From a bacterium (GTDB lineage: Bacteria > UBP14 > UBA6098 > B30-G16): 64,000 bases of DNA. Position numbers and translations under genes: made by a program. This document shows, piece by piece, positions 15,001 through 61,768 of this stretch (position 1 is the stretch's first letter; the number at the start of each line of letters is the position of its first letter). Below the pieces are notes generated by a model. It was not told where the DNA came from. It did no database searches and saw nothing but the letters and a program-made list of their open reading frames with translations. The stretch covers positions 587 through 64,586 of the forward strand of contig JAGGZE010000100.1 in the NCBI GenBank assembly GCA_021162205.1. Direction: 5' to 3'.

Positions 15001-17877
15001 GGCAATCCTGTCGAGGATGGCACTGTGGTGCATTTCAGCGTCGACCCATCGGATATGGGAGTCGTTTGGTCGGTAGCTGTTACCGCCGATACAGGAAGAT
15101 GTAAAACGCTATTCCAGGCCGGAACACAACCTGGAATTGTAGCGATTCACGCGACCGCTGGCGGCGCCGATGGAACATGTGTTATCGAACTTGTGCCTCC
15201 AGATGTAGCTTCTATCGAACTTTCGGTTGCAGACCATTATCTTCCCGGCGATGGTATATCCAGCACACAAGTCACTGCGATTGTATTCGATACGCTCGGA
15301 CTTCCAGCACCGAATGGCACAGGGGTTCATTTCGCTGTTACGGATAGTTCTGTCCCTGCAAATCTATTCCCTGCCTGGGCACAGACAATCGATGGTATAG
15401 CCAATGTTCAGTTAATCGCTCCGACTGATATTGGAGTTTGCTCGGTATATGCTTATATCGATACAGGAGACACCCCTTGGGTTATGAGCGATACGGAATT
15501 AGTTTATTTCGAAGGCGGCGACCCACAAGCTATCGTATTCAATCCGCCGACATTTACACTTCCAGCCGATGGTGCCACCGATACAGTCGGCACACTCACT
15601 GTAATCGATAGATATGGCAACCCGATAGGTGCAAGACCTGTTAGTATGACATTGGATTTAGGCAGAATCAGCCCAGCAACAGTTGTTACCGATACATCGG
15701 GTCGTGGAGTATTTCAGATAACATCTTCGATACATATCGGCGATGGTATGATTCAAGCTACAGCGGACCCTGCCATAGGATATATGAATATTCATTATAC
15801 CGCTGTTCCAATCGATACGATACTCGTTTTCGCTACACCATCGAGATTGCCAGCCGATGGAACGAGCCAATCTACTGTTACAGCGATTGTGATGGATTCG
15901 CTGGGAAGATTGTGTTCGGATGGAATGAGTGTGTATTTCTATACCGATAACGGATTTATTACTCCGCACGATACGACTATGGGAGGGCAAGCTCACGCTA
16001 CACTGACGGCGGTGGATACTGTTTGCACTGCTACGGTTACAGTTGTATGCCAAACCGAAAGCGCCTATGTAAATGTGATTTTCACTGCGGGGGTGCCAGA
16101 TACGATTATAGTTACATTCTCACAAGATATGGATACTGTTGGAAGCGGAACGATGGATTCGATTTCTGGCTTGGTTCTCGATACGCTTGGAAATAATGTG
16201 GGTGCTGGTGCGCTCGTCGAACTATGGCTTTCCACAGATATAGCAGGTTCGGATACTTGCGGTAGTGGCGGCGAACCGTGTAGTCTCGGAACAATCGGCG
16301 ATATTACCATCCTGACAGATTCCAATGGTCAATTTAGCACACAGTTCACACCTGGAACAAAAGCTGGTATTGTTTGGATTCAGGCGAGGTCTGGTAGTGC
16401 GATAGGAAAAGATTATATGATTCTCGAACCCGAGATTGCGCATACTGAAAGTCTCGATGTCGATAGGAATCATATATATGTGCGTGGGTCGGGAAATATC
16501 GACCAGGCAATTTTGACCGCATATATATTGGATAGATATAGCAATCCTGTGAAAGACAGCACGAAAATTATTTTCTGGTGCACGAATTATCCGGGTGGAG
16601 CAGACCCGAATCGTCAGCCATCTATCGAACCGGAACATCCAACATCGGGGCAACTTTATTCCGATACGATTTACACTCTTAACGGGCGAGGCAATGTTAC
16701 GGTTCGTGCGGGGAAAGCATCCGGTGTTGTGGTTGTTCGAGCGGAATTATTCGATGGCTCGGGACTAATTTCCGAATCGCCGCGTATCTCTATTTCCAGC
16801 GGACTGCCATACAATATCTCGATGTCGGTAAGAGATTGTAATATTGCAGGATGGCTTGTCGATGGTCTTCAGGATACTGTAATGGCTATTGTTTCGGATT
16901 CTATGGATAATCCCTGTCCGAATACTGCTGTATATTTGACCTGCGACGAAGGTATTGTTACGGGTTCTGCTGTTACCGATAGCAATGGTATCGCTTATGG
17001 AATATGGTTCTCCGCCGACCCGAGAGATACGAACGGCTATCCGACAGCAGGGCGCATTATGGTCGAGGGAAGAACTCGCGGCGATTCATCGGCAACTTGC
17101 CATGGCGATTCCGGCTGGGTTTGCGACAGCACGATGTTCTATAATTCAGGACCCGCCGAATCGGTATATGTAACAGTTTCACCGAACTCTATCAATGCCG
17201 ATGGTGTCAGCACCGCCGATATTGTTGCGTTGGTATTCGACCACAATAGAAATCCTGTTGTCGATAGCTCGAATGTTCATCTTTTGACTAATCTCGGTTC
17301 GGTTACCGACCCGATTACAACTTATAACGAATGTTTCGGCAGTCGCGCCGATGGCGTATATACCAGCACCACTCTCGACCAGGATGATTACTGCGCAGAC
17401 CCGCGTGGTAGAACTGCAACAATAAGCGCTCTCGCCGGTTTCGCCGCAGGTTCCGATAATGTGGATTTGATGAATTCAGACCCGAGTCCAGAAAATTCCG
17501 GTGTAACTGCACCGGGTTCGGTTCCAGTAGGTGGTGATTTCAGCGCTGTGGTAACCGTAAAGGATATTTGGGGTAATCCACTTTGCGGCGAATCCGTAAC
17601 ATTAATTAGCGCAGTCGGTGCGACTGTTACTGGAAGTCCTGGAGTTACAAATAATTCGGGTATCGTTTCATTCAATGTAATAGCTGCTACCGATACTGTC
17701 GATATAAACGATGTGCTGACAGCAAGGTTCGGTTTGTGCGCCGTTTGGACAGAAGTTACATATGCCTCGGGCAAGGGAGTATTTACACCGGATACTTCGA
17801 GTTCCGCCGGAAGTGATAATCGAACACCGATGTATATCGAGTATCGGGATAGTTTGATAAATAAACCGAGTGAATAG
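1..17877 (+). CDS. Giant secreted adhesin-like protein made of tandem bacterial Ig-like (Big_1/invasin-type) domains. It is 5'-partial: frame 1 is open from nt 1 to the first ATG at 115.
   Basis: A 5,920-aa ORF with no stop in frame between nt 1 and 115. It contains dozens of ~95-aa repeats with the motif 'ADG.S...TA.V.D.(Y/F)GNPV..GT.V.F.T.LG'. Confidence 0.8.
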   Translation, partial: VYFTIVADTISATSTTDKDTLWRASQGGVSPSTPGTACMDFFLPSNSVGLTVVVTVVGYDEYSKYRTFTVITGTEYNILLMQLDSNSVTVGSGQVGITVWVKDVFGQPVQNEFVCFTSLNPTLGVMADSCLFSDNAGMCTTSFIIGTKSGIDTICATDHAGISVCGHIILNPAVANTESLFADAYHIYRCGSGLYDQTDIIAQIYDRYWNPVRNGTSVIFSIDTFTFMDSCSNNPSDSCYPCPGLEPEHPTLGRLYSDTVYTTTDSTGSYATVKLKAGYLSGVVRLRCDVLDGSGTVAWSSLLNISSGQPHYISLSARPPGSSIWEAGDPMQNYYSSPIDYAMWGACTQDSMPLEIMAVVSDEFNNPIPSTSVWFTATSGVVGGWPGSPSIAINTDSTGIGTTYWFSSDRRELDSCFVMIKAYSAETSVADSLFFYLRYLDGTLCCNPCDLVNIISATAIPDTIEGSGTDSSTIAVQLVYSSLPLTNYQVQFRTRHGWLSSNIDTTNESGIATVYYSAINPSPSTFADTITAIAGDSCAIAYIPVYVSPAAVALNITLIADDYNPTVGGQEVELTGMIRDIGGVPITIPLPISWSIMTDTLIAPPEVGDFVSYSVYSDTLGLFSAVFETGNLAGVITINAIVAGSGTASVNLNILPATVILAADNYNPEVGGVVVHLNGSITDYLGDPVRTPAPVNWSLILPDSSIAPIEMGHLDSLSMASDTNGTFKGVYISGTTNGEVGVVAEVAGIGSDTVWLNVQSGPPAGITLNISPDTDTVGGLVPDTISGCVVDGYGNPVEFSGVVNLWLAYDAAGDSVCYPCSYGSIEPTGVIPDSTGCFTALFSPGVTSGLIWIHALADSAHGVTSITLIPQLARTESLAVSLNHIRTCGNAPYQSEVTTYVFDQFGNAVADLTPIIFAIDTFSYMDACTTWDDSCLSPCPRLIPSSSVLGPLFSDTIYTIDGLARATLKAGSVSGVVRVAAYVMDGSGEVAYSQMINISSGDVQEISISARKRSPIDTLTGHLCISVPPYTCEYCSWTYDWWSGDPDIDGYAPQLNMPSGWVLDGDTCNSLWIQVRISVSDTFGNPIPSATIHLSCDEGVIGGYPYGPVDSVALTDTNGLAYTYWYAADPRVDGQVWIKAHSSDISVGDSLWFYLLDTLGIPPYDTVEQEVIYVVPDTVFGDGLSTVDILCRVMRNGNPLPNYPVYFYADTGMIGSPVFSDSIGYARTTYYSGLNHNPGVITTDSITMIAGIDTAYFPIFLLPIDPVRPYVAYILFDLQPDNISVGDSAVLSGLILDGLGYPVRLPVPVYFALHQDSFPAPLNMGIISPGYTYTSSDAATYGQFSTLFRSGSQAGNLWLLMTAIQGADTVIDSVMIHITGSSPQTISVVPTSAYLEADGRSNMQVVATVQDMYGNPVEGVTVDFSTTLGQMNPATAITNENGQASTILISGTETGTAVITATCEGRVGTAEVEFVSATVHFIILDVEPSRLPADGISSAAVTADIRDQYGQPISDGTIVSYRCLTPTHIPIGNIDTIGVTSTGISTVNLTAPTTATSAWVFATAMSHIESVYVEFTAGDVYSLEISSLPDTIPADGLSQSDISVRAYDQYGNPVESGNRIDYAATLGELLFDHSFTDDTGFTQTVLTSARTTGSSQITASSGDVEAITVVYFSPITAQSIVVMSDSVHLCADGISSTNIRALVFDSLGGAVPDGTPVSFSTDLGILIPGYAYTDSGEVVVLLRAPTTPGIATIIADAGDGIIGTTYVEFIAGSPASISMSVSPNILPADGDTTAIISGTVYDENANPIGAGFEVQFQTTLGSVDLLTYTDSVGSFSIIYHAGITPGTAIIGATCESAHGQAYIDIIPTDAEELYITIDPNELTADSRSTAVVSGRVTNTLGNPVADGTPVRLEIHCADTLGCDAFGEVMPITVPTDSGDFNATFIAGTRVGRVWIIASVGTVIDSAFVNLKPGEVDSIAVDANPNIISADSFSYSLIAANLFDVYGNAVGSGVDVNFSTTNGTILPEHTTTNSSGYASALLISSRMPGVARVQVSSGSAIGEDTVVFSESGAGLVIVTISPSQIIADGVSFAIVTAQITDTLGNPISDGIPVMFSEIVDTATGADTLGVLVPSIAYTSDGEATVQFRARTQKGIATVRACIDSLHCGEGIVEFIAGNGDSIEIYSADSMLPADGVSFTEITAIVYDRYGNLVEGGRSVLFATTSGGVAPATAPTNSAGQAKAILTSSDNPGIAWVTSQCEDGYATIPVEFGLAEPVFLAVNANPRRIAADGISTSAITARLINAVGEPVVEGTMIIFHAFDSLGNPFGDIDTLATTSAGQAQVTLTAPTQIGVAYVTAAYYGDIDTLIDTTTVTYTPGPPAGIDIFVAPETLYANDTVTADIRIVVVDLYGNPVEPGQNISISSDNGTIFPTTAYTGDTVVCTYYPGSVAGRATINVSCGSIVNSAVIELLTPSIAYLVVFADSSSLVANGSSVSEIHIIAQDALGHPVADNTPVYLTTTAGLVFPGIAYTNGGEAVVSLRSGTVAPDTAVIIVSAGVEAETVYVPLIPGPPAMIDIIPNSTSLFADGEDTTTVRAYVTDAHGNWVNEGTNVRFSTSLGTIDSLTLTTAVAETTGFASARFRAGIIPGSALITVTSGTAISQTIIGLIPTDVGNIYLTVDPNELIADSRSTAVVSGRVTNTLGNPITDGTPVGLEVHCADTLGCNGFGEIVPITVHTDSGNFDAEFIAGTRVGRIWVVASVDTIADSAFVDLIPGEPDSVALTIVPNTLPADSFSNATVTANLYDRFGNPVESGVTVNFSTSLGEIDPTNTTTNSSGRATTHLTSGRTPGIALVRASSGSAAGEDTAIFTQTGAQLVVVTIDPAQIVADGINSAIVSAQISDSLGNPVSDGMPVMFVQIVDTAAGEDTLGLLVPSIGFTDSGVATIHFRAGTETGRATIQACVDTAHCGIGFIDLIAGTADSIILVSADTVLPADGVSMTTMSADIYDRYGNSVEGGRSVAFNTTLGQIYPSTAPTSSGGQANAILTSSADPGLAWITAQCEDAYASVMVDFGMMPPVFLSINASPRRITADGISTSTITAHLINSVGAPVPDGTMIFFHSVDSTGAPFGDIDTIATTINGDASVILTAETQIGVAYVSAIWYNATDTLTDTVTVTFTPGAVAMVQVTADRETLYANDTLTARVTIVVTDVFGNMVEPGQAVAISVDNGDIFPTTGYTGDTIICTYYPGSVAGRAVITAECGGFVGSEVIELLTQIIANLVIYSDSAFLIANGTSTTGIHIVAQDSLGHPVADNTPVYVTTTTGITFPGVTYTSGGEAAVTLRSSTHSPDTAIVIGTAGSASDTISIVFIAGPPALINLVPARNVLWADGEDTTMVRAYITDIHGNWVDEGEIVGFSTNLGIVDSFDVTHAVVGTTGYAQTMFRSGIEPGAALVTANCGDATGITRITLDPTNVGEIGIFASPDIIVADGHQTSDITGFVRNSLGNPISDGTQVRLRVSPDSLGNISPVSVYTDSGNFSATFTAATVVGSVWVVMNVGGDTDSVAIELAPGQPHIITMNPIIGTIYADSSSVDTIAVVVTDRYSNRVHGGVSINFTTTLGEIFPVSNETNSAGSTYVFIRSGYNVGVARVVGRIDSARGECSVIIQTTQPNIIALSVDPHTLMADGFSTTLLTATVLDTFGHPISDGTPVTFSVDDSTYGLIFPGIAYTTSGQATSTFRAAVQKGHPVLKAETSPTNYDSVVITLTAGNPASVVMTAIPGTLSANGMDQSDIDVQVFDEWLNPVDAGQSVSFNSTLGQILFPTLLTDDSGHTNTVLQAGSVPGNCQVSAQCSGVYDVINVTFSRSGVNTIILTANPPELVVDGISSSAITAQIFDANGSPVTDNTKIYFWSSDPLAGTVISPRFTSGGQVVTEFIAGTSIGTGQVWIFSSDTDTVVAAHPIDSVRIGLKPGQPAYINVWTDTSHTPHDTLYADGNDGIWVFAQVFDAYGNHINGGQNVGFQTTMGRFSPISAMTDTTGTARAYIQSGLDIGTATITITCGSAMGFLGVEMIQTTVAGLLLTPDKLVLVADGTDVATITATVFAPGGTRVSNNTIVHFYADTDWVHLLPENTYTDSGEASITVRADTVATSSIRIHAYATTTAGDTSDTASLNFRIDPGPAARMNITVSDSAIPADGATGSLIDVFVYDRYSNPIIAGSTVRFNTTLGVITTVSFTDTLGHSSALLTSGTETGNAVVTITAGDITGFTQVSFYELTTDELIMTINPIQLPADGVSSATITVHAYDSLGFPSSDGSRVAFYQHDTTSGFIKGIIAPHIAYTVDGIVTVTLTAPVKKGWGRIYAYADTVGSAVVDSFDVQYLAGEPAIIQFDTTNFSNFEASGMYFDVPVIIEDAYGNPVDVGTEVTFTTTRGDIQTPAVVSNDTGGTVTYISSHETGPAVITAHSGSAVATAHCNFNEIEGDWMMIIANPYIITADGASHSTITATLMDTSGGIFIPVSDGVPVQFMVIGPGILSSSIAFTSGGQASVTLTAGTIADTTQIFALAISASGDTLSDTVNVFLQPGPASIVEFIDSFFHPLPANGADTEQVWIKVMDAFGNGVIRGTPVSFSTNLGDITPNSATDDSGFAWAILTASSTPGVATISASCGGAAGYATIAMQELTADSIILAVYPREIIADGVSTSELTSVVFHGDLPVSDGTIVRFSASRGITRPAIAYTSSGVATSQLVSSVSPDTVFIAAISGTVADTDTVYLVPGPPTRMTIESTPDSVLVANGNDTLRVNVQVFDDYSNPVGSGQLVTFGSTIGIITPNAYTDSVGQASVILSSEYEAGWAQITGTCGSATASMLIQFIPDSIGQVILAVNPIELTADGGSTADVTVTVLDINDHPIADGTPVLFSGLNLGLISPPVVTTTDGSASATLTSFTLIGMDTIIASCGSVVDSVNLSFVAGPPANIVLIPNNNFLISDGTDTTTVTATVTDAAGNPVEDGTVVHFSVDPSDMGVVWSVAVTADTGRCKTLFQAGTQPGIVAIHATAGGADGTCVIELVPPDVASIELSVADHYLPGDGISSTQVTAIVFDTLGLPAPNGTGVHFAVTDSSVPANLFPAWAQTIDGIANVQLIAPTDIGVCSVYAYIDTGDTPWVMSDTELVYFEGGDPQAIVFNPPTFTLPADGATDTVGTLTVIDRYGNPIGARPVSMTLDLGRISPATVVTDTSGRGVFQITSSIHIGDGMIQATADPAIGYMNIHYTAVPIDTILVFATPSRLPADGTSQSTVTAIVMDSLGRLCSDGMSVYFYTDNGFITPHDTTMGGQAHATLTAVDTVCTATVTVVCQTESAYVNVIFTAGVPDTIIVTFSQDMDTVGSGTMDSISGLVLDTLGNNVGAGALVELWLSTDIAGSDTCGSGGEPCSLGTIGDITILTDSNGQFSTQFTPGTKAGIVWIQARSGSAIGKDYMILEPEIAHTESLDVDRNHIYVRGSGNIDQAILTAYILDRYSNPVKDSTKIIFWCTNYPGGADPNRQPSIEPEHPTSGQLYSDTIYTLNGRGNVTVRAGKASGVVVVRAELFDGSGLISESPRISISSGLPYNISMSVRDCNIAGWLVDGLQDTVMAIVSDSMDNPCPNTAVYLTCDEGIVTGSAVTDSNGIAYGIWFSADPRDTNGYPTAGRIMVEGRTRGDSSATCHGDSGWVCDSTMFYNSGPAESVYVTVSPNSINADGVSTADIVALVFDHNRNPVVDSSNVHLLTNLGSVTDPITTYNECFGSRADGVYTSTTLDQDDYCADPRGRTATISALAGFAAGSDNVDLMNSDPSPENSGVTAPGSVPVGGDFSAVVTVKDIWGNPLCGESVTLISAVGATVTGSPGVTNNSGIVSFNVIAATDTVDINDVLTARFGLCAVWTEVTYASGKGVFTPDTSSSAGSDNRTPMYIEYRDSLINKPSE
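5611..10398 (+). repeat. Intragenic tandem segmental duplication in the giant gene: two ~2.4-kb units (about 800 aa, 8 Ig-like domains each), 5611-8016 and 8017-10398, then a diverged partial third copy from ~10399.
   Basis: Both units begin with '(T/V)DPNEL(T/I)ADSRSTAVVSGRVTNTLGNP' and stay colinear for about 800 aa. DNA identity is roughly 75-80% by eye. Confidence 0.85.
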
Positions 17878-27673: not shown

Positions 27674-30379
27674 ATGAAAAAATACTTGATTTACATCGTT
27701 GTTTCGACAGGACTTATATTGGCGGGCGAATTTCAATGGAATGCAAAAAATACAGCCATCGCAGATTGCGGATTTTCGATTCCACTCGATGCAGGCAGCA
27801 TATTTTACAATCCCGCTTTCGCTGGAGCATTCGGTAGTGGAGTTCTTTCTGCCGGTTATGGAATTCCATTCGCGGGTATCGAAAGTTCCGCAAAATCGGG
27901 TTATCTTGCATACACTCGACCATTGGGATGGAGTGCAGGACTCGCAGTCATCGGGAACTATGAGGATATATCGGCGTATAAAATGTTTAGAATCGGCGGC
28001 GATTTTGCATATCGAATCGCGTTGGCGGGAACATTATCGCTCGGTATGGGAATCGATTGGCTTCAGCGAAGTTATGATATTCCAGCCGATGACCCACTTC
28101 ACGGCAGAGGAAATCCCTCGGCGGTTTCTTTCGATGCTGGAGTGTTATGGCAAATGTTGGACAAATTTGCGTTCGGTCTATCCGCGATGGATATAAACGA
28201 GCCGAATCTCGCAATCGAGGAAAATGCACCCGCATCGAAATTGCCTAAAAGAATCGGCGCAGGAATTTCATATAAATTCACCAACTATTTCATTCCCGAA
28301 CTTGCGATAGTATATCGTTCTTTCACAATCGGCGAAAAATCCAATCCCGAATATATACTCGGTTTCTATGGTGGATTGAAATCCAATACATTGTTCTGGC
28401 GTGGCGGAATTTCTCCCGATATCGCCGATATCGGAGTTGGATGGCATTTGAATTCTGTATTCGGCGGACTCGATTTCGACTATGCTTTCGGATTGCCACT
28501 ACAAAGTTCTCTGCGTTCAGCAGGACAGACACAGCATTATTTCGGTGTAACATTTTACGGCAAACAGGTTCGTGTTCGTAAGGGCGACCTCGAAATTCGG
28601 GATTTGCAAATATCGGGGGAATTTAAGGCGAAAAAGCCGCTTAAAATTTCCGCGACAGTCATAAACGATAGTCGGATAAAAATCACATCGGTTCCGTGTG
28701 CACTCACTGTCTATGATGGCAAAAAATGGAAAATGATTTATCCTACAAAATATATCGATTCACTCGCTTCAAAACAGTCTGTCGAAATGGAGTGGAACTG
28801 GAAACCTAAAATCGAGGGTAAATATACGATTAGAATTACTGCAGATGACGATGGCAATGAAATTCCCGATATTTCGGGGCATATCGATGAAAAAAATGAA
28901 AAGAACAATCAGGTCTCCAAAAAGATAGTGATTTCTGCATCGGATACACTTGTAATCGAGCCTAAAATTTCGACATTATCGGCGACTCAATTGATAGTCA
29001 AGGTAGAGGAGGAACCCGTTGTTCCTGTTGTATTTTTCCCTGCTGGTTCGGCAATGTTCGACAAACGGGGCAGTCAATTTCTCGATGTCCTCGCCGATAG
29101 ACTTTCACAAAATCCCGATGCTATATTGACAGTTTATGGATATTACGATGTTTCAGATGGTGACAAAGACCCGCGTTCCCTTGCTGATGCCCGCGCCGAG
29201 ACTGTGAAAAATAATTTACTCGCTTATAATACAAAACTTGCAAATAGAATTTATACCGTTGATAATTATGATGTGCAAAAATCCCGTCTTACAAGCAGAT
29301 ATGTTAAAAACGACCCGAGAATTAATCAGGAAAACCGAAGAGTCGAATTTTCGGTTTCGGTGAGAAGTGATATTGCTAAATTTTCTGAAAATGATGCAAT
29401 TCGACTTTTACAAAATAACGACGATTTCCTTTTAGTGATAATCGGGAGGCGAACTAAATCGGAAAATGCCCGTGTAGGGTTTGCTCGAGCCGATTCTGTC
29501 AGAAAAAAAATATTGTCGAAAAATCCACATTTGCATAATAGAATTGTGGTAGAGGAAGAAATCGGCGAGGATAGGAATATTATTTTTGAAATCGACCCCG
29601 ATGGCGTAATAGTTCGTCCACGAGAGCGATATCCTGTTTCGGAACAATGGAAAGACCCAGAACCTGCTCGAAATGTAATCGAAATTCGACGCAAAGGGTT
29701 TGAAAATATTCATCGATGGAAAATTGTTGTGGAAAGTGAAGATAGAAATCTCGTTCATACAATAGCAAATGGCTCCGGGATACCGCCCGATTCTATTGTG
29801 TGGGATTGGTCTGTCGGTAAAGATAGATTTTTAGCTCCGAATAACGAGTATGGATTACATATAAAGCTCGAGACCGCCGAAGGAAATCGAGAATATTTTG
29901 CAAATGAGAAAATCCATTTAGTTCCAAGGCAGAAAATCGAGGCGATTGAAAATATGCTATTAGTCGAGTTTGTATTCGATGAAAGCGAACCGCTGTCGAA
30001 ATATCTCGAACGCAGACTTTTCAGTTTTGCAGAAAAATTCGTTGCGAGAGTCGATTCGGGTTATTCACAAAGTGCCGAAATACAGGGACATACCGACAAT
30101 ATCGGTTCCGAACGCAGAAATACCGAACTATCATCTCAACGAGCAAACCGCGAATATTTTATTATGCGGAAATTTATCGCATATTTTGCCGATGTCCCTG
30201 TCGATAAACTCGATAAATGGCTTACCGAACACGATTGTTCACTTTCATATAAAGGATATGCATCTGAAAAACCGTATACACTTCGAGGAAAAATCCTTGG
30301 CGATAATAGTTCTTCGTATGGACGAAATATAAACCGCCGGGTTACTCTCGAATATCATTACGAAAAAGATTTGAAATAA
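27674..30379 (+). CDS. Outer-membrane protein: N-terminal PorP/SprF-like beta-barrel (~290 aa) fused to two OmpA-like peptidoglycan-binding domains.
   Basis: Signal peptide; the N-terminal motif 'SIFYNPAFAGAF' resembles the conserved PorP/SprF 'NPAYAG' start. The C-terminal half has two OmpA-C-like domains ('QGHTDNIGSERRNTELSSQRANR...NRRVTLEY' and 'NRRVEFSV'). It lies immediately downstream of the type B CTD cargo gene. Confidence 0.55.
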   Translation: MKKYLIYIVVSTGLILAGEFQWNAKNTAIADCGFSIPLDAGSIFYNPAFAGAFGSGVLSAGYGIPFAGIESSAKSGYLAYTRPLGWSAGLAVIGNYEDISAYKMFRIGGDFAYRIALAGTLSLGMGIDWLQRSYDIPADDPLHGRGNPSAVSFDAGVLWQMLDKFAFGLSAMDINEPNLAIEENAPASKLPKRIGAGISYKFTNYFIPELAIVYRSFTIGEKSNPEYILGFYGGLKSNTLFWRGGISPDIADIGVGWHLNSVFGGLDFDYAFGLPLQSSLRSAGQTQHYFGVTFYGKQVRVRKGDLEIRDLQISGEFKAKKPLKISATVINDSRIKITSVPCALTVYDGKKWKMIYPTKYIDSLASKQSVEMEWNWKPKIEGKYTIRITADDDGNEIPDISGHIDEKNEKNNQVSKKIVISASDTLVIEPKISTLSATQLIVKVEEEPVVPVVFFPAGSAMFDKRGSQFLDVLADRLSQNPDAILTVYGYYDVSDGDKDPRSLADARAETVKNNLLAYNTKLANRIYTVDNYDVQKSRLTSRYVKNDPRINQENRRVEFSVSVRSDIAKFSENDAIRLLQNNDDFLLVIIGRRTKSENARVGFARADSVRKKILSKNPHLHNRIVVEEEIGEDRNIIFEIDPDGVIVRPRERYPVSEQWKDPEPARNVIEIRRKGFENIHRWKIVVESEDRNLVHTIANGSGIPPDSIVWDWSVGKDRFLAPNNEYGLHIKLETAEGNREYFANEKIHLVPRQKIEAIENMLLVEFVFDESEPLSKYLERRLFSFAEKFVARVDSGYSQSAEIQGHTDNIGSERRNTELSSQRANREYFIMRKFIAYFADVPVDKLDKWLTEHDCSLSYKGYASEKPYTLRGKILGDNSSSYGRNINRRVTLEYHYEKDLK

Positions 30380-30401
30380 TAACTGCTTGAGAGGATAAAA
30401 A

Positions 30402-31709
30402 ATGAAAACTATACCGATTATAATTATAATCGCATCGTTATTCGGTTCGATTTGGGGATTTGGACTATCATTTAAAGATGACGGCTCGGTCGATACCAAA
30501 ATTGTCGCTGTCGTCGGGAATAAACCGATACTTTCCAGTGAACTCGACCAGATGCTTTTGACATCGGCAGTGGAAATACCGAAAGATTCGAGCGATGTCT
30601 ATAAACTTTACGGGCAGATACTCGGCGAACTAATCGATGAGGAATTGGTCTATCAATCGGCACTTGCCGAGAGTATCGAGGTCGATGAGGATATGCTTAA
30701 ACAGGAATTTTCTGCGAGATGGGATTCATTCGTAGTTAGATTCGGCACAGAGAAAGCACTCGCCGAGACTCTCACACAGGAAGGTATGTCGATTGTATCT
30801 TTCAAGAAGAAAGTGAAAAATCAGGTTAAAATGGGACTTCTAAAACAGATGTATATCCAGAAACATATAACCGAGACAGAGGTTTCCGATGAGGAATTGA
30901 GAAAATTTTACGACGATTATAAGGACAGTCTCGGCGAATATCCCGAACAGATAGAATTGAGTGCGATACTAATATCTTTGCCATCGGATTCGATTATTTT
31001 TGAGCAAACTCGAAAAGTAGCGCAAAAAATCTATGATACACTTGTTAGTGGAATCGAATTTAATCGGGCGGTTCAGAATTTTTCGCAGGATGAAATCACA
31101 ATGAAGGATAATGGCGAACTCGGTGAATTTTCAATCGATGATTTACCGCAGAATTTTAAGAATGCCATCGATAAATTAAAAACCGGTGAATATTCGAAAC
31201 CTGTTAAAAGCGAAAAGGGTTATCATATCTTAAAACTTATATTCCGCAAGAACAACAAGGTGAAACTTGCGCATATATTTGTAGAATTACCTATTCGTAA
31301 TGATTTTGCCAAGCAAATTGCTAATGCAGTATATGATTCTGCCCGCAATGGAACGGATTTCCAGACATTGCTTATTCATCACACCGCAGATAGTTCACTT
31401 CTCGCTAATAATGGCAAACTCGGGACATTTCCAGCGACAGCACTTCCACCGGCGCTCGAAACGATTGCGGATTCACTCGGCGCAGGAACAGTGATTCCAC
31501 CACTTCAACAAAATGGGCAATGGGCTGTTTTCAGAATAGATAACATAATTCCCGAAGAACCGATGACATTGGATAAACACGCTAACTTCATCAGACAATT
31601 GGCACGCCGAAAAAAGTTTTCTGATAAATTAAGCCGCTTAATCGAGAAACTGCATCAGCAAATCTATGTCGAGGTGAAGGATAAAAAAATCGCACCGTAT
31701 GTGCGTTGA
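30402..31709 (+). CDS. surA: Periplasmic chaperone/peptidyl-prolyl cis-trans isomerase, SurA-like with two parvulin domains.
   Basis: Signal peptide, SurA-N-like helical region, and two PpiC-type segments ('GELGEFSIDDLPQNFKNAIDKLKTGEYSKPVKSEKGYHILKL' and 'NGKLGTFPATALPPALE...'). Confidence 0.65.
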   Translation: MKTIPIIIIIASLFGSIWGFGLSFKDDGSVDTKIVAVVGNKPILSSELDQMLLTSAVEIPKDSSDVYKLYGQILGELIDEELVYQSALAESIEVDEDMLKQEFSARWDSFVVRFGTEKALAETLTQEGMSIVSFKKKVKNQVKMGLLKQMYIQKHITETEVSDEELRKFYDDYKDSLGEYPEQIELSAILISLPSDSIIFEQTRKVAQKIYDTLVSGIEFNRAVQNFSQDEITMKDNGELGEFSIDDLPQNFKNAIDKLKTGEYSKPVKSEKGYHILKLIFRKNNKVKLAHIFVELPIRNDFAKQIANAVYDSARNGTDFQTLLIHHTADSSLLANNGKLGTFPATALPPALETIADSLGAGTVIPPLQQNGQWAVFRIDNIIPEEPMTLDKHANFIRQLARRKKFSDKLSRLIEKLHQQIYVEVKDKKIAPYVR

Positions 31710-31722
31710 AAAATATCGACAC

Positions 31723-31741
31723 ACACCCTTCGGGTGTTTTT
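31723..31741 (+). terminator. Intrinsic terminator-like hairpin (acaccc-ttcg-ggtgt followed by TTTTT) after surA. It also forms the first module of the mosaic repeat.
   Basis: Perfect 6-bp GC-rich stem followed by a T-run, 14 nt after the stop codon. Confidence 0.6.
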
Positions 31742-32066
31742 AGTGCGTTGCGTTTCTTCCGACAAAGTCGAAATTCATTGCAACGCCATCGTTATCAAAG
31801 TTTCCGAACCCATTAAAAAGAGCCGTAGGCTTCGCCTGTTTTTATTGCGTTGATTTTTTCTGAACAGGGGATATAGTTGCCCATTGCCCGATAACGAATT
31901 GTAGGGGCGAACGGCGTTCGCCCAATAGAATAAGGGCGTATTCGATATGCTCCTACACCGTGTTTTTAATTGGTTGAAATGTTATTTAATTGAGCTGGCA
32001 TTGCAGGGAATTGTTCCGCTTTTGTGGAACAAGGAAAGCAATGCGAAGAAAACAGGCGAACGCCTG
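31723..32066. repeat. Mosaic intergenic repeat locus A: one forward unit (31723-31851) and one inverted unit (about 31905-32066), tail-to-tail. The inverted unit abuts the tRNA-Ser 3' end.
   Basis: Shares with loci B-D the modules hairpin+T-run, outer stem gcgttgc/gcaacgc enclosing a short palindrome, and an AT-rich box '..attaaataacatttcaacc.attaaaaa' followed by a GC hairpin. In the inverted unit the hairpin caggcgttcgcctg+TTTT lies directly 3' of tRNA-Ser. Confidence 0.75.
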
Positions 32067-32075
32067 CGAAGGGAT

Positions 32076-32160
32076 GCGGAGGGTAAGGGATTCGAACCCC
32101 CATGGGCTTGCGCCCGGCGGATTTCAAGTCCGCTGCCTTACCAATTAGACTAACCCTCCG
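32076..32160 (-). tRNA. tRNA-Ser (anticodon UGA), no encoded CCA.
   Basis: Manual fold: 7-bp acceptor stem, 3-bp D stem, anticodon loop CUUGAAA, 15-nt variable arm (gggc-gcaa-gccc), and T-loop TTCGAAT. Confidence 0.85.
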
Positions 32161-32503
32161 ATATTTTTTCAGGCAATAATTTATGCGAATGTATAACTTT
32201 GTCAAATTCTTTTTAAGCAAAATTTGCTCTCTAATATTCAGGATATTATTTTCAAAATTCTCGAATTGCTCAAATTTATCTTGACTGAATGAGATACCGG
32301 AATATTGTAGTTATATCGGTTTCTGCATAGAAGGAGTATATAATCTTAAAAACACATAGTAAAAATAATAGATTTATTGTAACAATTTTCTTGACCACAT
32401 ATTATTTTAATTTATTATTTTGAATTATTTTAAATAACTATAAAATAGAAATAGAGAATAAAAATAGGATATATTAAAATGATTTTAAATAGAAAGGGAA
32501 ATT

Positions 32504-35500
32504 ATGAATAAAATAGGAAGAATACTGATTGTAGGTGGTGGAATAGGAGGAATTCAGTCCGCATTGGACCTTTCTTCATCGGGTTATAAAGTTTATCTGC
32601 TCGATAAAAAATTATCTATCGGTGGAGCTATGTCTCAATTGGACAAGACATTCCCTACGAACGATTGTTCTATGTGTATACTTTCTCCCAAAATGGTCGA
32701 TGCCGGCAGACAGTTGAATATAGAGCTTCTTACCAATTCCGAGGTATTATCTGTCGAGGGCGAGCCCGGGAATTTCAAGGTAAAAGTATTGAAGAAAGCT
32801 CGGTATGTATCGTTCGATAATTGTAAGGGTTGTGGAGACTGCACTGAAGCCTGCCCTGTTTCGCTTCCCAATCCTTATGAGGAAATGCTCGGGACGAGAA
32901 AGGCGATATGGCGACCATTGGAACAGGCAGTCCCATCGGCATTCGCTGTCGATAAATTGGGTATCCCTCCTTGCAGGGCGAGATGTCCTATTCACTTAAA
33001 TGCCTATGGGTATGTGATGGCAGCAAAAGTGAAAGAATGGGAAAGAGCACAGGAAATCGTAAGAAAGGATAGAGATTTTGTATTCGCTGCCACTGCTGCA
33101 AGGATATGCACTCATCCCTGCGAATCGGAATGCAAAAGATGCGAGGTAGATGAACCTGTATCTATAAGAGGTATTAAAAGATGGATTGTCGATTGGGAAT
33201 TTGAAAAATATGGCGGTCCAAATCTACCGATAGAGATAGCGGAAGAGAAAGATAAGCGTATTGGAATTATAGGTGCGGGACCTGCTGGACTCACAGCCGC
33301 TTTTCATCTTCGCAAAAAAGGTTATCGAGTCGAAGTATTCGAAAGTCTGCCAGCTGGTGGTGGTATGCTTCTTGCGGGTATTCCAGCATACAGACTTCCC
33401 AAAGATATTTTGAAAAAAGAAGTGGAAATAGTAGAAAAATCGGGTGTCGATATAAAGTATAATACCAGCATAGGAAAGGATATACAGTTCGACGAGTTAC
33501 TCGGGAATTTCGATTCGGTGTTTATCGCTACAGGAGCGCATAAATCGAGAGGTATGAAAATACAAGGTGAAGGACTAACAGGTGTTCATCATGCAGTGCA
33601 TATATTGAGAAAAATAAATTTAGGCGAGGAAGTAAAATTAGGGAAAAAAGTAGTTGTAGTAGGCGGAGGAAACTCTGCGATGGATGCAGCGAGAAGTGCA
33701 TTAAGGTTGGGTTCCGATGTAACGATATTGTATAGAAGGTCGAGACTCGAGATGCCGGCGATAGACGAGGAGATAGAGGCAGCGATTTCAGAAGGCATAA
33801 ATATCGAATTTTTAAGGAATCCTGTCGAATTTATAGGGGAGAATGGTAAATTAAGCAAAGTGAAAGTTATCGAGATGGAATTGGGTGAACCCGATGAATC
33901 TGGTAGAAGAAGACCTGTGCCTATATCGGGGAGTGAATATGAACTACCTGCCGATGATGTTATGCTCGCCATTGGTGAAAAACCCGAGCTTTCGTTCCTA
34001 AATAGTTCAAATATCGATATAACAGATTGGGGAACTATAAAAGCGGATGAGCTTACACTTCAGACATCGAATCCCAAAGTATTTGCAGGAGGCGACACTG
34101 TTACGGGACCCGCTTCATTCATAGATGCGGTTGCTCATGGTATGAGAGTAGCGGAATCCATCGATAGATATATATCAGGGAGAGATATTAGAGAAGGCAG
34201 AGAGGATGAACTGCCATTTAAGAGTGATTTAGTGGGCGATAAAGAAAGAGCATACCAAAAAGAGAGAATGCATCAGCCCATAGTTCCTGTCGCAGAAAGA
34301 ATAAAGGATTTCAGGGAGGTAGAATTAACTCCTAATGAAGATGATGTATCCGAGGAAGGGAAAAGGTGTATCGAATGTGCGCACTGTTCAGAATGTATGC
34401 TTTGTATGGAAGCTTGCGAGCCAGATGCAATTTTACATGATATGATATCGGAGGAAGTCGAACTGAATGTGGGCTCGATTATTCTTTCACCCGGTTACGA
34501 AGAATTCGCTGCCGAGAAAATTACTGAATTCGGTTATGGAAGATTCCCTAATGTTGTAACCTCGATACAGTTCGAGAGAATCCTATCTGCATCTGGACCT
34601 TATGGTGGAAATATAGTAAGGCCATCGGATAATGAACATCCCAAAAAGATTGCGTGGATTCAATGTGTCGGTTCGAGAGATAAACACAATGAATATTGTT
34701 CCTCTGTATGCTGTATGTATGCGGTTAAGGAAGCGGTAATTTCCCGAGAACATGCAAGCGATACCGATGCCACAATATTCTTTATGGATATAAGAGCTTA
34801 TGGAAAAGATTTCGATAAATATATCGATAGAGCAAGGGATGAATACGGTGTTAAGTTCGTAAGGTCGAGAATAGCAAAAATAGATGAAAATCCCGATACC
34901 AAAAATCTTATTATAAGATACGAGGCAAATGGCGAATTAAAGAAAGAAGAATTTGGACTTGTTGTGCTTTCTGTCGGACTTGCACAGCTTCCAGATAAGG
35001 ATGATATTAAGGAAAAATTTGGTATCGAACTAAACGAGTTCGGTTTCGCAAAAACAGATACATTCTGCCCTATATGCACCACCAGAGATGGCATATTTGT
35101 ATCTGGTGCATTTCAATCTCCAAAAGATATTCCAGAAACGGTAGCACAGGCATCGGGTGCAGCGGCAATGGCAGGAGGAGTATTATCCGATGTCAGATGG
35201 ACAGCAACCGAGAAAAAAGAGTATGTGGATGAAAAAATTGTTAAAAATGAAAGACCCAGAATCGGAGCATTTATATGTCGCTGTGGAATAAATATAGGTG
35301 CTTATGTAGATGTGCCAGCAGTTGTGGAATATGCAAAAACACTTCCCGGTGTTGTATATGCGGAAGAAAATCTATATACTTGTTCTCAGGATACACAGGA
35401 AAAAATAAAGGATATGATAAAAAAACATAATCTAAATAGAGTAGTTGTCGCATCCTGCACTCCGAGAACTCACGAACCGCTTTTCCAAGGGACTATAAGA

Positions 35501-41315: not shown

Positions 41316-41390
41316 TGGCCCAGAGTGGAATTGAACCACTGACCTCGCGCTTATCAGGCGCGCGCTCTAACCATGCTGAGCTACTGGGCC
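41316..41390 (-). tRNA. tRNA-Ile (anticodon GAU).
   Basis: Manual fold: acceptor GGCCCAG/CTGGGCC, anticodon loop CUGAUAA, T-loop TTCAATT. Confidence 0.85.
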
Positions 41391-41461
41391 CCTCGAATAA
41401 ATTATCTTATTTAAGAACACATTGCCATTTCTCACACCGACTAATCCCGACTGAGCTAATC

Positions 41462-41534
41462 TGGAGGATACCGGACTCGAACCGGTGGCCCCAAGCTTGC
41501 AAAGCTTATGCTCTCCCAACTGAGCTAATCCCCC
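41462..41534 (-). tRNA. tRNA-Ala (anticodon UGC) with a G3:U70 pair.
   Basis: Manual fold: acceptor GGGGGAT/ATCCTCC with the G3-U70 wobble (Ala identity element), anticodon loop UUUGCAA, T-loop TTCGAGT. Confidence 0.85.
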
Positions 41535-41598
41535 ATTTAAGTTATAACGCTAAACAAGATTTTTGATTTGTCAAGAAAATTCTTACGGATGATTTCGG

Positions 41599-49918: not shown

Positions 49919-50713
49919 ATGGATAAAAAATCTAATGAAAATGCAGGGGAATTGTTCGAACGGCTTGTCGAGGTTGTGGAAAAACTTCGTGCGCCCGGTG
50001 GATGTCCCTGGGATAGAGAACAAACTCACAAATCGCTGAGACCTTATTTAATCGAAGAAGTCTATGAAGTTGTCGATAGTATTGATAATAGCGATTATTT
50101 CTCTATGCGTGAGGAACTCGGCGATGTTTTGCTTCACATACTTTTTCACAGCGATATCGAGCGAGAATCAGATAGATTCGATATCTGCGATGTGATTCAA
50201 ACATTAACTGAAAAATTGATTCGTCGTCATCCTCATGTTTTCGGAGATGTGAAAGTCGCTAATTCCGACGAGGTTCTTCACAATTGGGAAAATATCAAAC
50301 TCCGTGAACGGCAGAAAAAATCAGGGAACGCTTCATTGCTCGATGGTATTCCGAAATCGATGTCGGCGCTATTGATTGCTCAAAGGATGCAGGAAAAAGC
50401 ATCACGAATCGGTTTCGACTGGGATAATATCGCAGATGTCTGGGGCAAAGTCGAGGAGGAAATCGGTGAATTAAAAGAATTACTCGATAGTGGTGATGAA
50501 AATAGAATCGAGGATGAATTGGGCGATGTTCTTTTCGCACTTTCCAATCTCGCTCGTTTCTTGAAAACAAATTCAGAGATGGCACTTCGCAGAACAAACG
50601 AGAAATTTTCCAGCCGATTTCGTTATATCGAACAAAAACTTCGCGAAAATAATATCGAAAACCCCACACTCGAAATTATGGATAAATTCTGGGATGAGGC
50701 AAAACAGGTTTAA
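49919..50713 (+). CDS. mazG: Nucleoside triphosphate pyrophosphohydrolase MazG.
   Basis: Tandem MazG domains ('LRAPGGCPWDREQTHKSLRPYLIEEVYE', 'ELGDVLF'). Confidence 0.8.
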   Translation: MDKKSNENAGELFERLVEVVEKLRAPGGCPWDREQTHKSLRPYLIEEVYEVVDSIDNSDYFSMREELGDVLLHILFHSDIERESDRFDICDVIQTLTEKLIRRHPHVFGDVKVANSDEVLHNWENIKLRERQKKSGNASLLDGIPKSMSALLIAQRMQEKASRIGFDWDNIADVWGKVEEEIGELKELLDSGDENRIEDELGDVLFALSNLARFLKTNSEMALRRTNEKFSSRFRYIEQKLRENNIENPTLEIMDKFWDEAKQV

Positions 50714-50827
50714 CCTGCTTCGGGTGTTTTTTGTGCGTTGCTTTCCTGCCCCGACAAGTCGGGACATTCCCTGCAACGCCTGATTAGTCAAATAACATTT
50801 AAACAATTAAAAAGAACCGAAGGTTCT
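50706..50827. repeat. Mosaic intergenic repeat locus B (single forward unit) immediately after the mazG stop.
   Basis: Hairpin+T-run 'gcagg-tttaa-cctgc ttcgggtgtttttt', outer stem gcgttgc...gcaacgc enclosing the palindrome cccgac-aa-gtcggg, the AT box 'ctgattagtcaaataacatttaaacaattaaaaag', and the hairpin agaacc-gaa-ggttct. Confidence 0.75.
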
Positions 50828-50858
50828 TCCCATATATCTTTAATTATTCATTATTTTC

Positions 50859-51604: not shown

Positions 51605-51638
51605 AAAAAAGGGCGAGAAAACCTCGCCCTCATTTATT
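51605..51638. terminator. Bidirectional intrinsic terminator between the convergent ftsE and T9SS-cargo genes.
   Basis: Hairpin gggcgag-aaaacc-tcgccc flanked by AAAAAA on the 5' side (a T-run for the minus-strand gene) and TCATTTATT on the 3' side. Confidence 0.6.
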
Positions 51639-51727
51639 AACTGCCAATCCCTCATTTATTAGCAGCTATCCCCTCATAAACATTTAATCCCGATGCCGTC
51701 ATCTATTCACCATCGACAGACACACCA

Positions 51728-57039: not shown

Positions 57040-57087
57040 ACATTCGATATATATAAAAACTTTATCCTATAAATGTCAAGATTTTTT

Positions 57088-57308
57088 TCCACCCGTTCGG
57101 GTGTTTTTATCGTGCAACTTTCCTTTCGCTTCGCTCAATTCCCTGTTGCACCCATTCGGGTGTTTTCTTCGCGTTGCGTTTCTGATTGCAAAGCAATCAT
57201 TCCTTACAACGCCTGCTCAATCAAAATAACTTTTCTCTAATTAAAAAGAACCGAATGGCTCAAAAGAACCGAGATGCTGGTTTGAACAAGGGAGCATGCT
57301 CCCTTGTT
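57088..57308. repeat. Mosaic intergenic repeat locus C: 1.5 units between tRNA-Met and the mutS2 stop.
   Basis: The hairpin cacccgttcgggtg+TTTTT; the stem pairs gtgcaac/gttgcac and gcgttgc/gcaacgc (the latter enclosing gattgc-aaa-gcaatc); the AT box 'tgctcaatcaaaataactttt...ttaaaaag'; and a terminal 9-bp palindrome caagggagc-atg-gctcccttg. Confidence 0.75.
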
Positions 57309-61218: not shown

Positions 61219-61280
61219 ATTTCCTCCAATTTTTTTGTTCGTTTAATATTTTTTCAATCTAATCAATAAAATCCAAATGT

Positions 61281-61730
61281 CAACACCCTTTGGGTGTTTT
61301 CTTCGCATTGCGTTCCTTGCCGATAAAATCGACAATTCCCTGCAATGCCTGATTAATAAATAACATTTCAACCATTAAAAAGAACCGCAGGCATTCGCCT
61401 GTTTTTATTGTGCAACTTTTCTTACCGATAGAATCGGTAATTCCTTGTTGCACCTGATTAATCAAAATTTCTCGGCGACAATGAATTTCACTCTTGTGAA
61501 AAAAAAGTCGCCCCTAAAAAGAGCCGAAGGGCTCTTGCAACGCCAGATTGATAAATAACCATATTAAAATGTCTGGGCGACAATGAATTGCTGATTCCAT
61601 CAGCAAGAAAAGTCGCCGTTAAAAAGAACGAAGGTTCTTTCTAACGACCTTTGGTCGTTAGAAATACTAAAGTTTTCTGGAAGGGGTTCGGGGGAACTTC
61701 TTTTGAAAAAGAAGTTCCCCCGAAAAAAAA
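61281..61730. repeat. Mosaic intergenic repeat locus D: about 3.5 tandem units filling the whole 550-bp spacer between two minus-strand genes.
   Basis: Units with outer stems gcattgc/gcaatgc and gtgcaac/gttgcac enclosing the palindromes cgat-aaa-atcg and accgat-aga-atcggt. Repeated AT boxes 'ctgattaataaataacatttcaaccattaaaaag'. Hairpins caggc-attc-gcctg+TTTTT, agagcc-gaa-gggctct, agaac-gaa-ggttct, ggcgac...gtcgcc. A terminal 14-bp-stem hairpin ggggaacttctttt-gaaa-aagaagttcccc. Confidence 0.8.
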
Positions 61731-61768
61731 TCGAGGGTTTTATAATAATACATGTTCGCTCGCTTTAA

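Follow-up and report, generated by a model that had tools for sequence, protein, structure and literature searches.

A 64,000-nucleotide stretch of contig JAGGZE010000100.1 (assembly GCA_021162205.1; hereafter the window) from an uncultured bacterium carries copies of a short composite repeat in four intergenic loci, A to D. The core of the repeat consists of a terminator-like hairpin module (T) and an imperfect palindrome (M). Two independent IUPAC patterns derived from the repeat gave four and five matches in the window and none in 100 dinucleotide shuffles, while a covariance model (CM) of the T+M core, of the type proposed with an earlier sequence-only reading of this DNA and built here from 30 copies, matched nine full units (E-values: 4e-15 to 3e-3) and one truncated unit (31817-31888) when the window was scanned with filters off. 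All CM units are confined to positions 31715-32074, 50705-50780, 57082-57213 and 61275-61646, with no match above noise outside the four loci. The sequence-only reading had placed the same composite unit at these four loci, and both the patterns and the model bear this out. A repeat finder likewise clusters the copies (families D9 and D17; inverted pairs I1, I2, I5, I9, I12 and I13). No unit is located in coding sequence, which makes up roughly 94% of the window, and the repeats occupy ~1.06 kb, or about a quarter, of the ~4.1 kb of intergenic DNA in the open reading frame (ORF) map. An eleventh, full T-M unit is found just past the right end of the window (L045:108-178, minus strand of L045; 55 bits; L-numbers denote the metagenome and relative contigs that were compared with the window), upstream of a formyltransferase gene, giving five loci in about 68 kb in total. 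The family is modular, multi-copy and strictly intergenic, and its units occur in either orientation. A further CM match at 61690-61749 (E-value: 0.08) falls on the long hairpin of locus D, which is unrelated to the repeat family. This perfect 14-bp hairpin (61687-61724; GGGGGAACTTCTTT…AAAGAAGTTCCCCC) is located 3′ of a gene for a 223 amino acid secreted protein, on whose strand a T-run precedes the hairpin rather than trailing it.

The T-M core is polar and about 70 nt in length, with T placed first in what is here termed the forward orientation. T comprises a GC hairpin of 5-7 bp, either CACCCnTTCGGGTG, CAGGCnTTCGCCTG or a variant with compensated changes, and a T-run 3′ of it, and three or four bases separate T from M, an imperfect palindrome of 39-49 nt with an outer stem of 6-7 bp, two internal loops and an inner hairpin. 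The 5′ internal loop, KTTYC(TT), and the 3′ internal loop, (AA)TTCMYT, are pyrimidine-rich and conserved in sequence, the inner stem is variable (4-9 bp, with only 2 bp in C1) and is capped by a purine-rich apical loop of 2-5 nt, and the closing arm is followed by a near-invariant C. The asymmetric internal loop between the two stems is conserved in 31/31 M copies, the T-T-C columns of the 3′ loop are invariant in 30 sequences, and the 5x6-nt internal loops represent the most conserved part of M. Four types of outer stem can be distinguished, namely GCGTTGC/GCAACGC, GCATTGC/GCAATGC, GTGCAAC/GTTGCAC and GGCGAC/GTCGCC. The first three, as well as the inner palindromes, had been read correctly from the sequence, while the fourth occurs in two inverted units of locus D (61474-61512 and 61576-61617) which had been missed.

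In many units M is followed by an AT box (cTGATTAATnAAATAACATTTcAACcATTAAAAAG), the end of which is the A-run of an inverted T, read on the other strand as AGAACCTTCGGTTCTTTTTAAT. The full element, T-M-box-T(inverted), spans about 125 bp and is closed at both ends by inward-stopping terminator-like sites, and the T and inverted T of full units resemble terminal inverted repeats (ends ~21 bp; consensus SAMCCTTCGGKTSTTTTTART), although the right end is absent from many copies. The second GC hairpin ascribed to the unit by the sequence-only reading does exist, but it is really either the T of the next unit or an inverted T whose T-run ends the AT box (…ATTAAAAAG); the terminator nature of the right-hand end had been overlooked. 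Units are arranged as direct tandems (D1-D2, C1-C2 and L026a-b), head-to-head across a shared AT box (D2/D3), or facing each other, as had been recognized for locus A (A1 on the plus and A2 on the minus strand). The coordinates of the individual units are provided in Table 1.

A longer variant of M, with two inner hairpins inside one GTGCAAC/GTTGCAC outer stem (…CCCGATgaaATCGGG…GTCGACaaaGTCtGA…), was observed in L016 (1620-1707) and L019 (minus strand, about 330-440), and scores weakly with the CM (22.6 bits). Hairpins preceded by GTAG were found in three instances only, comprising the two arms of the doublet at 31901-31958 and one hairpin in L020 (about 190-230), where a GTAG hairpin stands in for the inverted T of one unit. 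The GTAG…CTAC doublet between A1 and A2 resembles classical repetitive extragenic palindromic (REP) sequences and REP doublets forming hairpins (REPINs), and by analogy may hint at a REP-associated tyrosine transposase (RAYT) in the genome.

Table 1. Repeat units and associated features at loci A to D of the window
Feature	Position	Strand	Composition and context
A1 T module	31723..31743	+	ACACCC-ttc-GGGTGT + T-run; found by terminator scan; CM match 31715-31787, 78 bits; begins 14 nt past the stop codon of a SurA-like gene (30402-31709)
A1 M module	31745..31786	+	GCGTTGC / gtttctt / CCGAC-aaa-GTCG / aaattcatt / GCAACGC
A1 AT box, then inverted T	31787..31832	+	inverted T on - strand: AGCCTACGGCTC + TTTTTAAT
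Truncated unit	31817..31888	+	T (GTAGGCttcGCCTGT + TTTTATT) and 5′ arm only (GCGTTGa); weak CM match, 17.9 bits
Inverted doublet of two different GC hairpins	31901..31958		GTAG precedes each on its own strand: GTAG-GGGCGAAC…GTTCGCCC … GGGCGTAT…ATATGCTC-CTAC
A2 unit	31963..32067	-	T 32049-32067 (GCAGGCgttcGCCTGt + TTTC), beginning 9 nt past the 3′ end of tRNA-Ser; M 31998-32044; AT box 31963-31997
B T module	50705..50732	+	hairpin CAGGT-tta-ACCTG, then cttcgggtg + T-run; MazG stop codon (50711-50713) in the loop and 3′ arm
B M module	50735..50779	+	GCGTTGC / tttcctg / CCCCGAC-aa-GTCGGG / acattccct / GCAACGC
B AT box and inverted T	50780..50832	+	inverted T on - strand: TGGGAAGAACCttcGGTTCTTTTTA; directly upstream of the ABC-ATPase promoter (TTGACC…TAATTA)
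C1 unit	57088..57151	+	T (CACCCgttcGGGTG + TTTTT); M outer stem GTGCAAC/GTTGCAC, inner stem degenerate, 2 bp
C2 unit	57148..57261	+	T; M 57171-57212 (GCGTTG/CAACGC, inner GATTGC-aaa-GCAATC); AT box; inverted T 57248-57261, facing the MutS2 3′ end on the - strand
D1 unit	61281..61385	+	T; M 61305-61348; AT box
D2 unit	61386..61473	+	T (CAGGCattcGCCTG + TTTTT); M 61410-61453 (GTGCAAC/GTTGCAC, inner ACCGAT-aga-ATCGGT); short AT box
D3 unit, inverted relative to D1/D2	61473..61542	-	T (AGAGCCCttcGGCTCT + TTTTAGG); M 61474-61512, GGCGAC/GTCGCC; CM 46 bits
Partial forward outer arm and AT box, beside D4	61536..61575		
D4 unit, inverted	61575..61648	-	T (AGAACCttcGTTCT + TTTTAAC); M 61576-61617, GGCGAC/GTCGCC, inner GCTGAT-gga-ATCAGC; CM 53 bits

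In an alignment of 35 units fitted to the model, the outer stem is paired at 98% and five of its seven pairs are changed on both sides, while the inner stem is paired at 87% and all five pairs are changed on both sides; when the 3′ partner was slid by one to three columns, pairing reached only 33-42%. The structure-preserving covariation described by the sequence-only reading is thus upheld, with the correction that the inner stem of C1 has only 2 bp. Furthermore, the M modules of L025a and L027 differ solely by one compensated A-T to G-C pair, and a one-sided G·T intermediate (GCGTTGC/GCAATGC) is present in L026, from which we conclude that the variation is real. Because the structure guided the fitting of this alignment and only a few discrete outer-stem types exist, the cell counts overstate the number of independent events. 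Among the 31 parsed M sequences 28 are distinct, and across the 75-nt model, 9 nt of which are non-homologous flank, their median identity is ~54%. The palindromes are near-perfect in Watson-Crick terms on both strands and the inner stems almost always perfect, as might result if the covariation were a by-product of replication or repair, with template switching perfecting quasi-palindromes in the absence of structural selection. Quasi-palindrome correction is an established mutational mechanism. It should, however, erase the asymmetric 5x6-nt loops, and it leaves both the three or four discrete outer-stem types and the decay of M in a relative (see below) unexplained. The one-sided intermediate of L026 and the persistent loop asymmetry are both seen in this sample, and we consider such an origin very improbable.

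The sequence-only reading took the covariation as a signature of selection on structure. Pairing is indeed maintained, but a step from there to RNA structure is not secure, since compensatory changes are common across the hairpins of REPINs and the same signature is thus documented for DNA hairpins (PMC3116915). Were M, with or without the AT box, a structured RNA, it would act as a cis element in 3′ trailers through read-through of T, or as small RNAs, with a protein on the conserved loops. Both stems covary strongly while the unpaired loops are conserved in sequence, the units are diverse but paired, the polarity of T-M is fixed, and T-M follows tRNA-Leu in two species with different stems, all of which is in keeping with a role as RNA. 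The strand opposite to T also gives whole units a somewhat more favorable fold, and it is favored by single-transition mismatches as well (~9 to 3, wobbles on the reverse versus the forward strand), although the latter bias lacks significance (two-sided binomial p about 0.15). M is, however, located behind a hairpin and T-run, its far end is shut by an inverted terminator-like site, and no sigma-70-like promoter was found within the units, whereas clear TTGACA-N16-17-TAnnnT promoters serve the tRNA-Ser, tRNA-Met, ABC and pyridoxal phosphate (PLP)-enzyme genes. The units furthermore occur in both orientations relative to neighboring genes, G·U pairs are rare and equal on both strands (13/406 forward versus 9/411 reverse; 2-3%), and the orthologous copy in an 83-84% relative is without either stem. 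Rfam, a search of which had also been proposed, returned only tRNAs at gathering thresholds on the whole window, and at E<=10 only chance-level matches far below threshold on loci A and D. We therefore regard a structured RNA as unlikely, and the repeat provides a clean example that compensatory stem changes alone are no evidence for functional RNA.

Three further candidate functions were rejected. A decoy RNA of the CsrA/Rsm type would present GGA motifs, which occur in the reverse internal loops or forward apical loop of some copies only, about half of the copies having AATGAA/AGAAAC loops and AAA/AGA apical loops without GGA. A micro-ORF of 31 codons crosses D1 on the reverse strand but is disrupted in unit B, and an invertible promoter between the inverted repeats was dismissed as no promoter is located inside the units.

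The T modules most likely represent intrinsic terminators of adjacent genes and tRNAs, judging by their composition and placement. At each of the four loci, a scan for the terminator consensus picked out T as well as the inverted T (2-7 sites compared to 0.3-0.9 expected). The T stems covary (CACCC/GGGTG, CAGGC/GCCTG, GAGCC/GGCTC, GAACC/GGTTC and GTGGC/GCCAC) with the T-run invariably 3′ of the hairpin, which is the look of a terminator under selection. At A1, A2, B, L016 and L025, T is located 0-14 nt past stop codons or tRNA 3′ ends, touching or overlapping the 3′ ends of tRNA-Ala (L016) and tRNA-Leu (L025), and on other contigs it is found directly 3′ of IF3, Pta and two other genes. In 11/16 determinable cases, as read from the ORF and tRNA maps, the start of the array directly adjoins the stop codon of a co-directional gene or the 3′ end of a co-directional tRNA. 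tRNAs account for four of these cases, far more among the roughly 20 loci than would match the proportion of tRNA genes. In the remaining arrays the inverted T at the other end faces a convergent gene, such as that of MutS2 at locus C. Units A1, A2, B, D3 and D4 are co-directional with neighboring genes (D3 and D4 with the upstream 223 amino acid protein gene), while C1, C2, D1 and D2 point against the flanking genes, such that their first hairpin is not the terminator of those genes. The proposal that the first hairpin and T-run double as a terminator consequently applies to A1, A2 and B, but not to the plus-strand units of loci C and D, where it is the inverted T that faces gene ends. The foot of the D1 T hairpin overlaps, on the minus strand, the TTGACA -35 box of a promoter-like site (61256-61300) of the PLP-enzyme gene, and as such the repeat may contribute half of this promoter.

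The same features could point to a bidirectional terminator/insulator cassette that is selected by the host and spread by recombination, with M and the AT box as a spacer or nucleoid-protein site. Terminator-like sites bound the units on both strands, with seven found at locus D against 0.6 expected, T adjoins stop codons and tRNA 3′ ends, and T, the AT box and the inverted T outlast M in the relative in which M has decayed. BIME-1, one of the bacterial interspersed mosaic elements (BIMEs), and Correia elements contain a central integration host factor site. The BIME linker has been described (PMC3333891). A cassette does not, however, explain the two-tier fold of M, its compensatory changes and conserved loop bases, or the T-M-T-M tandems. 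Ordinary terminators unrelated to the repeat serve other genes in the window (e.g. 51610-51640), and in five cases, read from the ORF maps, the leading T faces a promoter instead of a gene end. We consider the cassette unlikely, although it overlaps with a mobile repeat whose T has been exapted as a terminator rather than excluding it.

Scanning of the Joint Genome Institute (JGI) metagenomes with a strict M-only pattern yielded 24 loci, of which 14 truly belong to the family; nearly all of these come from sample Ga0164318, with Ga0190303 contributing one. One contig (L029) is the ortholog of window positions 29629-32755 (98.9% identity). The 13 others carry about 24 further units, resemble the window in the repeat only, have a GC content of 38-43%, and encode IF3, a release factor, Pta, DivIVA, PorV, SpoU, cyclophilin and similar proteins. 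The T+M of A1 recurs in L019, where it is 100% identical over 62 nt with different flanks. Several units are located at the ends of metagenome contigs, and same-strain short-read contigs (European Nucleotide Archive, Logan) stop in the repeats, L001 at window position 32049 (inside A2) and L002 at 31720 (start of A1), as is expected of dispersed repeats; the family thus breaks short-read assemblies. In the 185,579 species-representative genomes (one per GTDB species), a pattern combining the M 3′ arm and AT box gave nine matches, all by chance, in coding or unrelated DNA, which means that the species, or the exact pattern, is absent from this collection. A blastn search of a plasmid collection with D1-D2 gave no match. 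The family is previously uncatalogued, being found in neither Rfam, the plasmid collection nor the species-representative genomes. The nearest named homologs of MazG (57%; Melioribacter) and MutS2 (43%; Zixibacteria) are distant, and type IX secretion components are encoded (PorP/SprF in the window, Por_Secre_tail cargo in related contigs), which together point to a deep, uncultured lineage of the Fibrobacterota-Chlorobiota-Bacteroidota (FCB) type. A well-delimited modular repeat family is thereby added from a poorly known uncultured lineage.

The geometry of M, with a 7-bp outer stem, unpaired bases, an inner stem and a short terminal loop, is similar to that of integron attC recombination sites (R stem, unpaired central spacer, L stem and terminal loop), for which the consensus is RYYYAAC/GTTRRRY, and the GTGCAAC/GTTGCAC stem fits this consensus at 6/7 positions per arm. 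The commonest stem, GCRTTGC/GCAAYGC, however, has AAC/GTT on the wrong arms and GGCGAC/GTCGCC is without them; the units, separated by 60-105 nt and without cassette ORFs, are scattered by housekeeping genes in both orientations and have no integrase nearby. Given these stem types, and with neither cassettes nor a nearby integrase, an attC-like site can effectively be dismissed.

Comparison of orthologous spacers, likewise suggested with the sequence-only reading, revealed a presence/absence polymorphism between mazG and the ABC-ATPase gene, with an occupied site in the window, L036 and L041 and an empty one in L042. The window carries an intact T-M-box-T(inverted). In L036 and L041, whose MazG proteins are 83-84% identical to that of the window, T, the AT box and the inverted T are kept, while the M arms are non-complementary (GTGCAAC…GCGACGC) and the inner palindrome is gone. 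The spacer in L042 (MazG 72%, same gene order) is 55 nt in length and contains no element, and none is found 3′ of mazG in the 66-74% relatives L037, L039 and L043, which have a different downstream gene. In the filled sites the last two MazG codons and the stop are located inside the T hairpin (window 50703-50717; L036 9869-9881; L041) and the protein ends in EAKQV*, EAKQA* or EAKKA*, versus EAKE-x-E(x)* in relatives without the element, indicating that the element inserted in the 3′ end of the ORF and now provides its last codons and stop. A compensated T-A to C-G change in this hairpin (CAGGT-tta-ACCTG versus CAGGC-tta-GCCTG) between the two species swaps the last residue from Val to Ala. 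The repeat as such rewrites gene 3′ ends, the MazG C-terminus and stop having been replaced, and probably provides terminators for tRNAs and housekeeping genes. Apart from this decayed copy, the CM identified no other unit in ~28 kb from 83-89% relatives, and none in ~80 kb from 66-74% relatives. The element has therefore inserted at one or more sites (at least one) that are empty in a relative, and decays in a relative without other copies. At locus D the synteny of an 85-89% relative differs and no clean empty site was found. Two contigs, L021 and L023, were discarded as orthologs, as the shared sequence amounts to only 135 nt of repeat.

We suggest, with a probability of about 0.55, that the family represents a lineage-specific, modular, non-autonomous intergenic repeat of the kind represented by REP/BIME/REPIN sequences and small MITEs (miniature transposable elements with inverted repeats), in which M is copied or maintained in trans and T has been exapted as a terminator. 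The behavior of a mobile repeat is indicated by the short imperfect palindromes, the mosaic and tandem clusters, the restriction to one lineage, the insertion polymorphism and the decay where the population is gone. The description of a BIME/MITE-like, non-autonomous mosaic repeat with no transposase nearby, as put forward by the sequence-only reading, holds for the window and the 13 other loci. REPs are read by Y1/HUH transposases as folded single-stranded hairpins. By a comparable mechanism, a trans-acting enzyme would recognize M in single-stranded DNA by its hairpin fold and unpaired loop bases, and copies would be made or maintained; only M copies that keep the fold would propagate, giving rise to compensatory changes. 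The T modules would end transcription of the neighboring gene or tRNA as well as insulate the element, and this terminator/insulator role is perhaps why insertions are tolerated or retained. Binding and cleavage by TnpA-REP, which acts on single-stranded DNA, require the stem mismatch (PMC3333891), and REPIN populations decay after loss of the RAYT (10.1101/2022.05.22.493013).

Several observations weigh against such a mobile repeat. No transposase or other candidate enzyme was found in the 64-kb window or at the 13 other loci, where the ORFs encode housekeeping proteins or unknowns; the 223 amino acid ORF beside locus D was rejected as a transposase, being a signal-peptide protein with no Pfam match. 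M is without the 5′ GTAG of REPs, the bases flanking it being T-rich and variable (cttc, tagt, tatt, ttgt, taac) with no conserved GTAG 5′ of M, and most tandems run in the same direction instead of alternating in orientation. That the family belongs to REP/BIME proper is as such not established. Neither a target-site duplication nor an excision product was seen, and no direct repeat is present at the boundaries of unit B, its ortholog or A1, the empty site being too diverged for base-level mapping. The M copies are diverse yet almost perfectly paired, which fits structural selection in place at least as well as recent copying, and terminator activity of T is deduced from sequence only. Furthermore, on contigs of two species that are ~80% identical over the NYN gene and tRNA-Leu(GAG), T-M is located directly 3′ of this tRNA and has different stems in both T and M; this could reflect locus-level conservation and is a counter-example to simple decay. 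In L031 (1385-1500), a second copy of the 3′-terminal 23 nt of tRNA-Leu(GAG) is found 92 nt past the gene and is followed by T-M; it resembles an att remnant left by a small integrated element. It is conceivable, but improbable, that T-M is instead the substrate of an as yet undescribed mobilization system other than RAYT, which would read the two-tier fold with its conserved pyrimidine loops independently of stem sequence and spread 'mobile terminators' to gene and tRNA 3′ ends; a second version, covered by the same low estimate, would have M as a protein-binding RNA or DNA element kept by the host at each locus.

Additional features are found elsewhere in the window. A single 5,920 amino acid ORF (115-17877, plus strand) contains ~600-nt periodic repeats (families D1-D20; spacing 579-609 nt) and presumably encodes a giant surface protein with Ig-like repeats, followed by PorP/SprF-OmpA and Big_5 proteins. 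Genes for tRNA-Ile(GAT) and tRNA-Ala(TGC) are adjacent at 41316-41535 (minus strand), as in an rRNA spacer, with protein ORFs on both sides and no flanking rRNA gene. Two blocks of 18-nt tandem repeats (AGATGTGTGACATCTCCA…; 54358-54633; family D6) are located in a 183 amino acid ORF (54270-54821, minus strand) coding for a hexapeptide-repeat protein.

Among known systems, the repeat shares with the REP/BIME sequences of Enterobacteria and Pseudomonas, which are mobilized by RAYT/TnpA-REP, the presence between genes of short imperfect palindromes (30-50 nt) whose stems hold a conserved unpaired feature, the locally dense, mosaic clusters of few palindrome types and linkers with tandem amplification, the location at gene 3′ ends and the compensatory variants. 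REPs have been defined as imperfect palindromes of 30-40 nt with an essential stem mismatch (PMC3333891), a description that also suits M, at 39-49 nt and with an internal loop. It differs in that M has no adjacent GTAG, each M is coupled to a terminator hairpin, and tandems are mostly direct; the fold of M is two-tiered with a large internal loop, compared to the 1-2-nt mismatch of REPs, its stems are far more diverse, and no RAYT, the gene for which typically has such repeats on either side, was found in the window or at the 13 other loci. REP/BIME palindromes characteristically form inverse pairs with defined linkers, often amplified in tandem; of the pairs seen here, D2/D3 and A1/A2 are inverse and D1-D2, C1-C2 and L026a-b direct. 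As in REPINs (REP doublets; PMC3116915), the hairpin arms are conserved while the middle varies with compensation, the family belongs to one lineage, and it decays where the system has apparently been lost. REPIN populations, however, have a dominant master sequence, whereas 28/31 M sequences are distinct here, and M is half the size of a REPIN and is not built of two REPs. The length of ~100-150 bp, inverted ends, AT-rich center and intergenic location are shared with the Correia elements (CREE) of Neisseria and with RUP, ERIC and BOX elements, as are the provision of terminators, the contribution in one case of a partial promoter, and the possible overlap with gene ends. Unlike these and other small MITEs, the repeat shows no TA or other target duplication, its ends are hairpins with T-runs, its T-M core also occurs without the right half, and the two-tier palindrome has no counterpart among them. 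The coupling of a terminator to such a palindrome, the switching between stem types and the inverted terminator ends are unusual traits of the family. At the left end of IS200, a terminator hairpin that blocks impinging transcription is followed by a second structured hairpin. This order recurs in T-M, which further resembles the IS200 left end and the IS200/IS605-derived palindrome-associated transposable elements (PATEs), whose subterminal imperfect hairpins are read as single-stranded DNA and which make no target duplication, although neither tnpA/tnpB, a pair of left-end and right-end hairpins nor conserved cleavage tetranucleotides were identified here. If a mobilizing enzyme is found, its use of a fold independent of stem sequence would provide a useful comparison for hairpin recognition in the REP/RAYT and IS200/IS605 systems.

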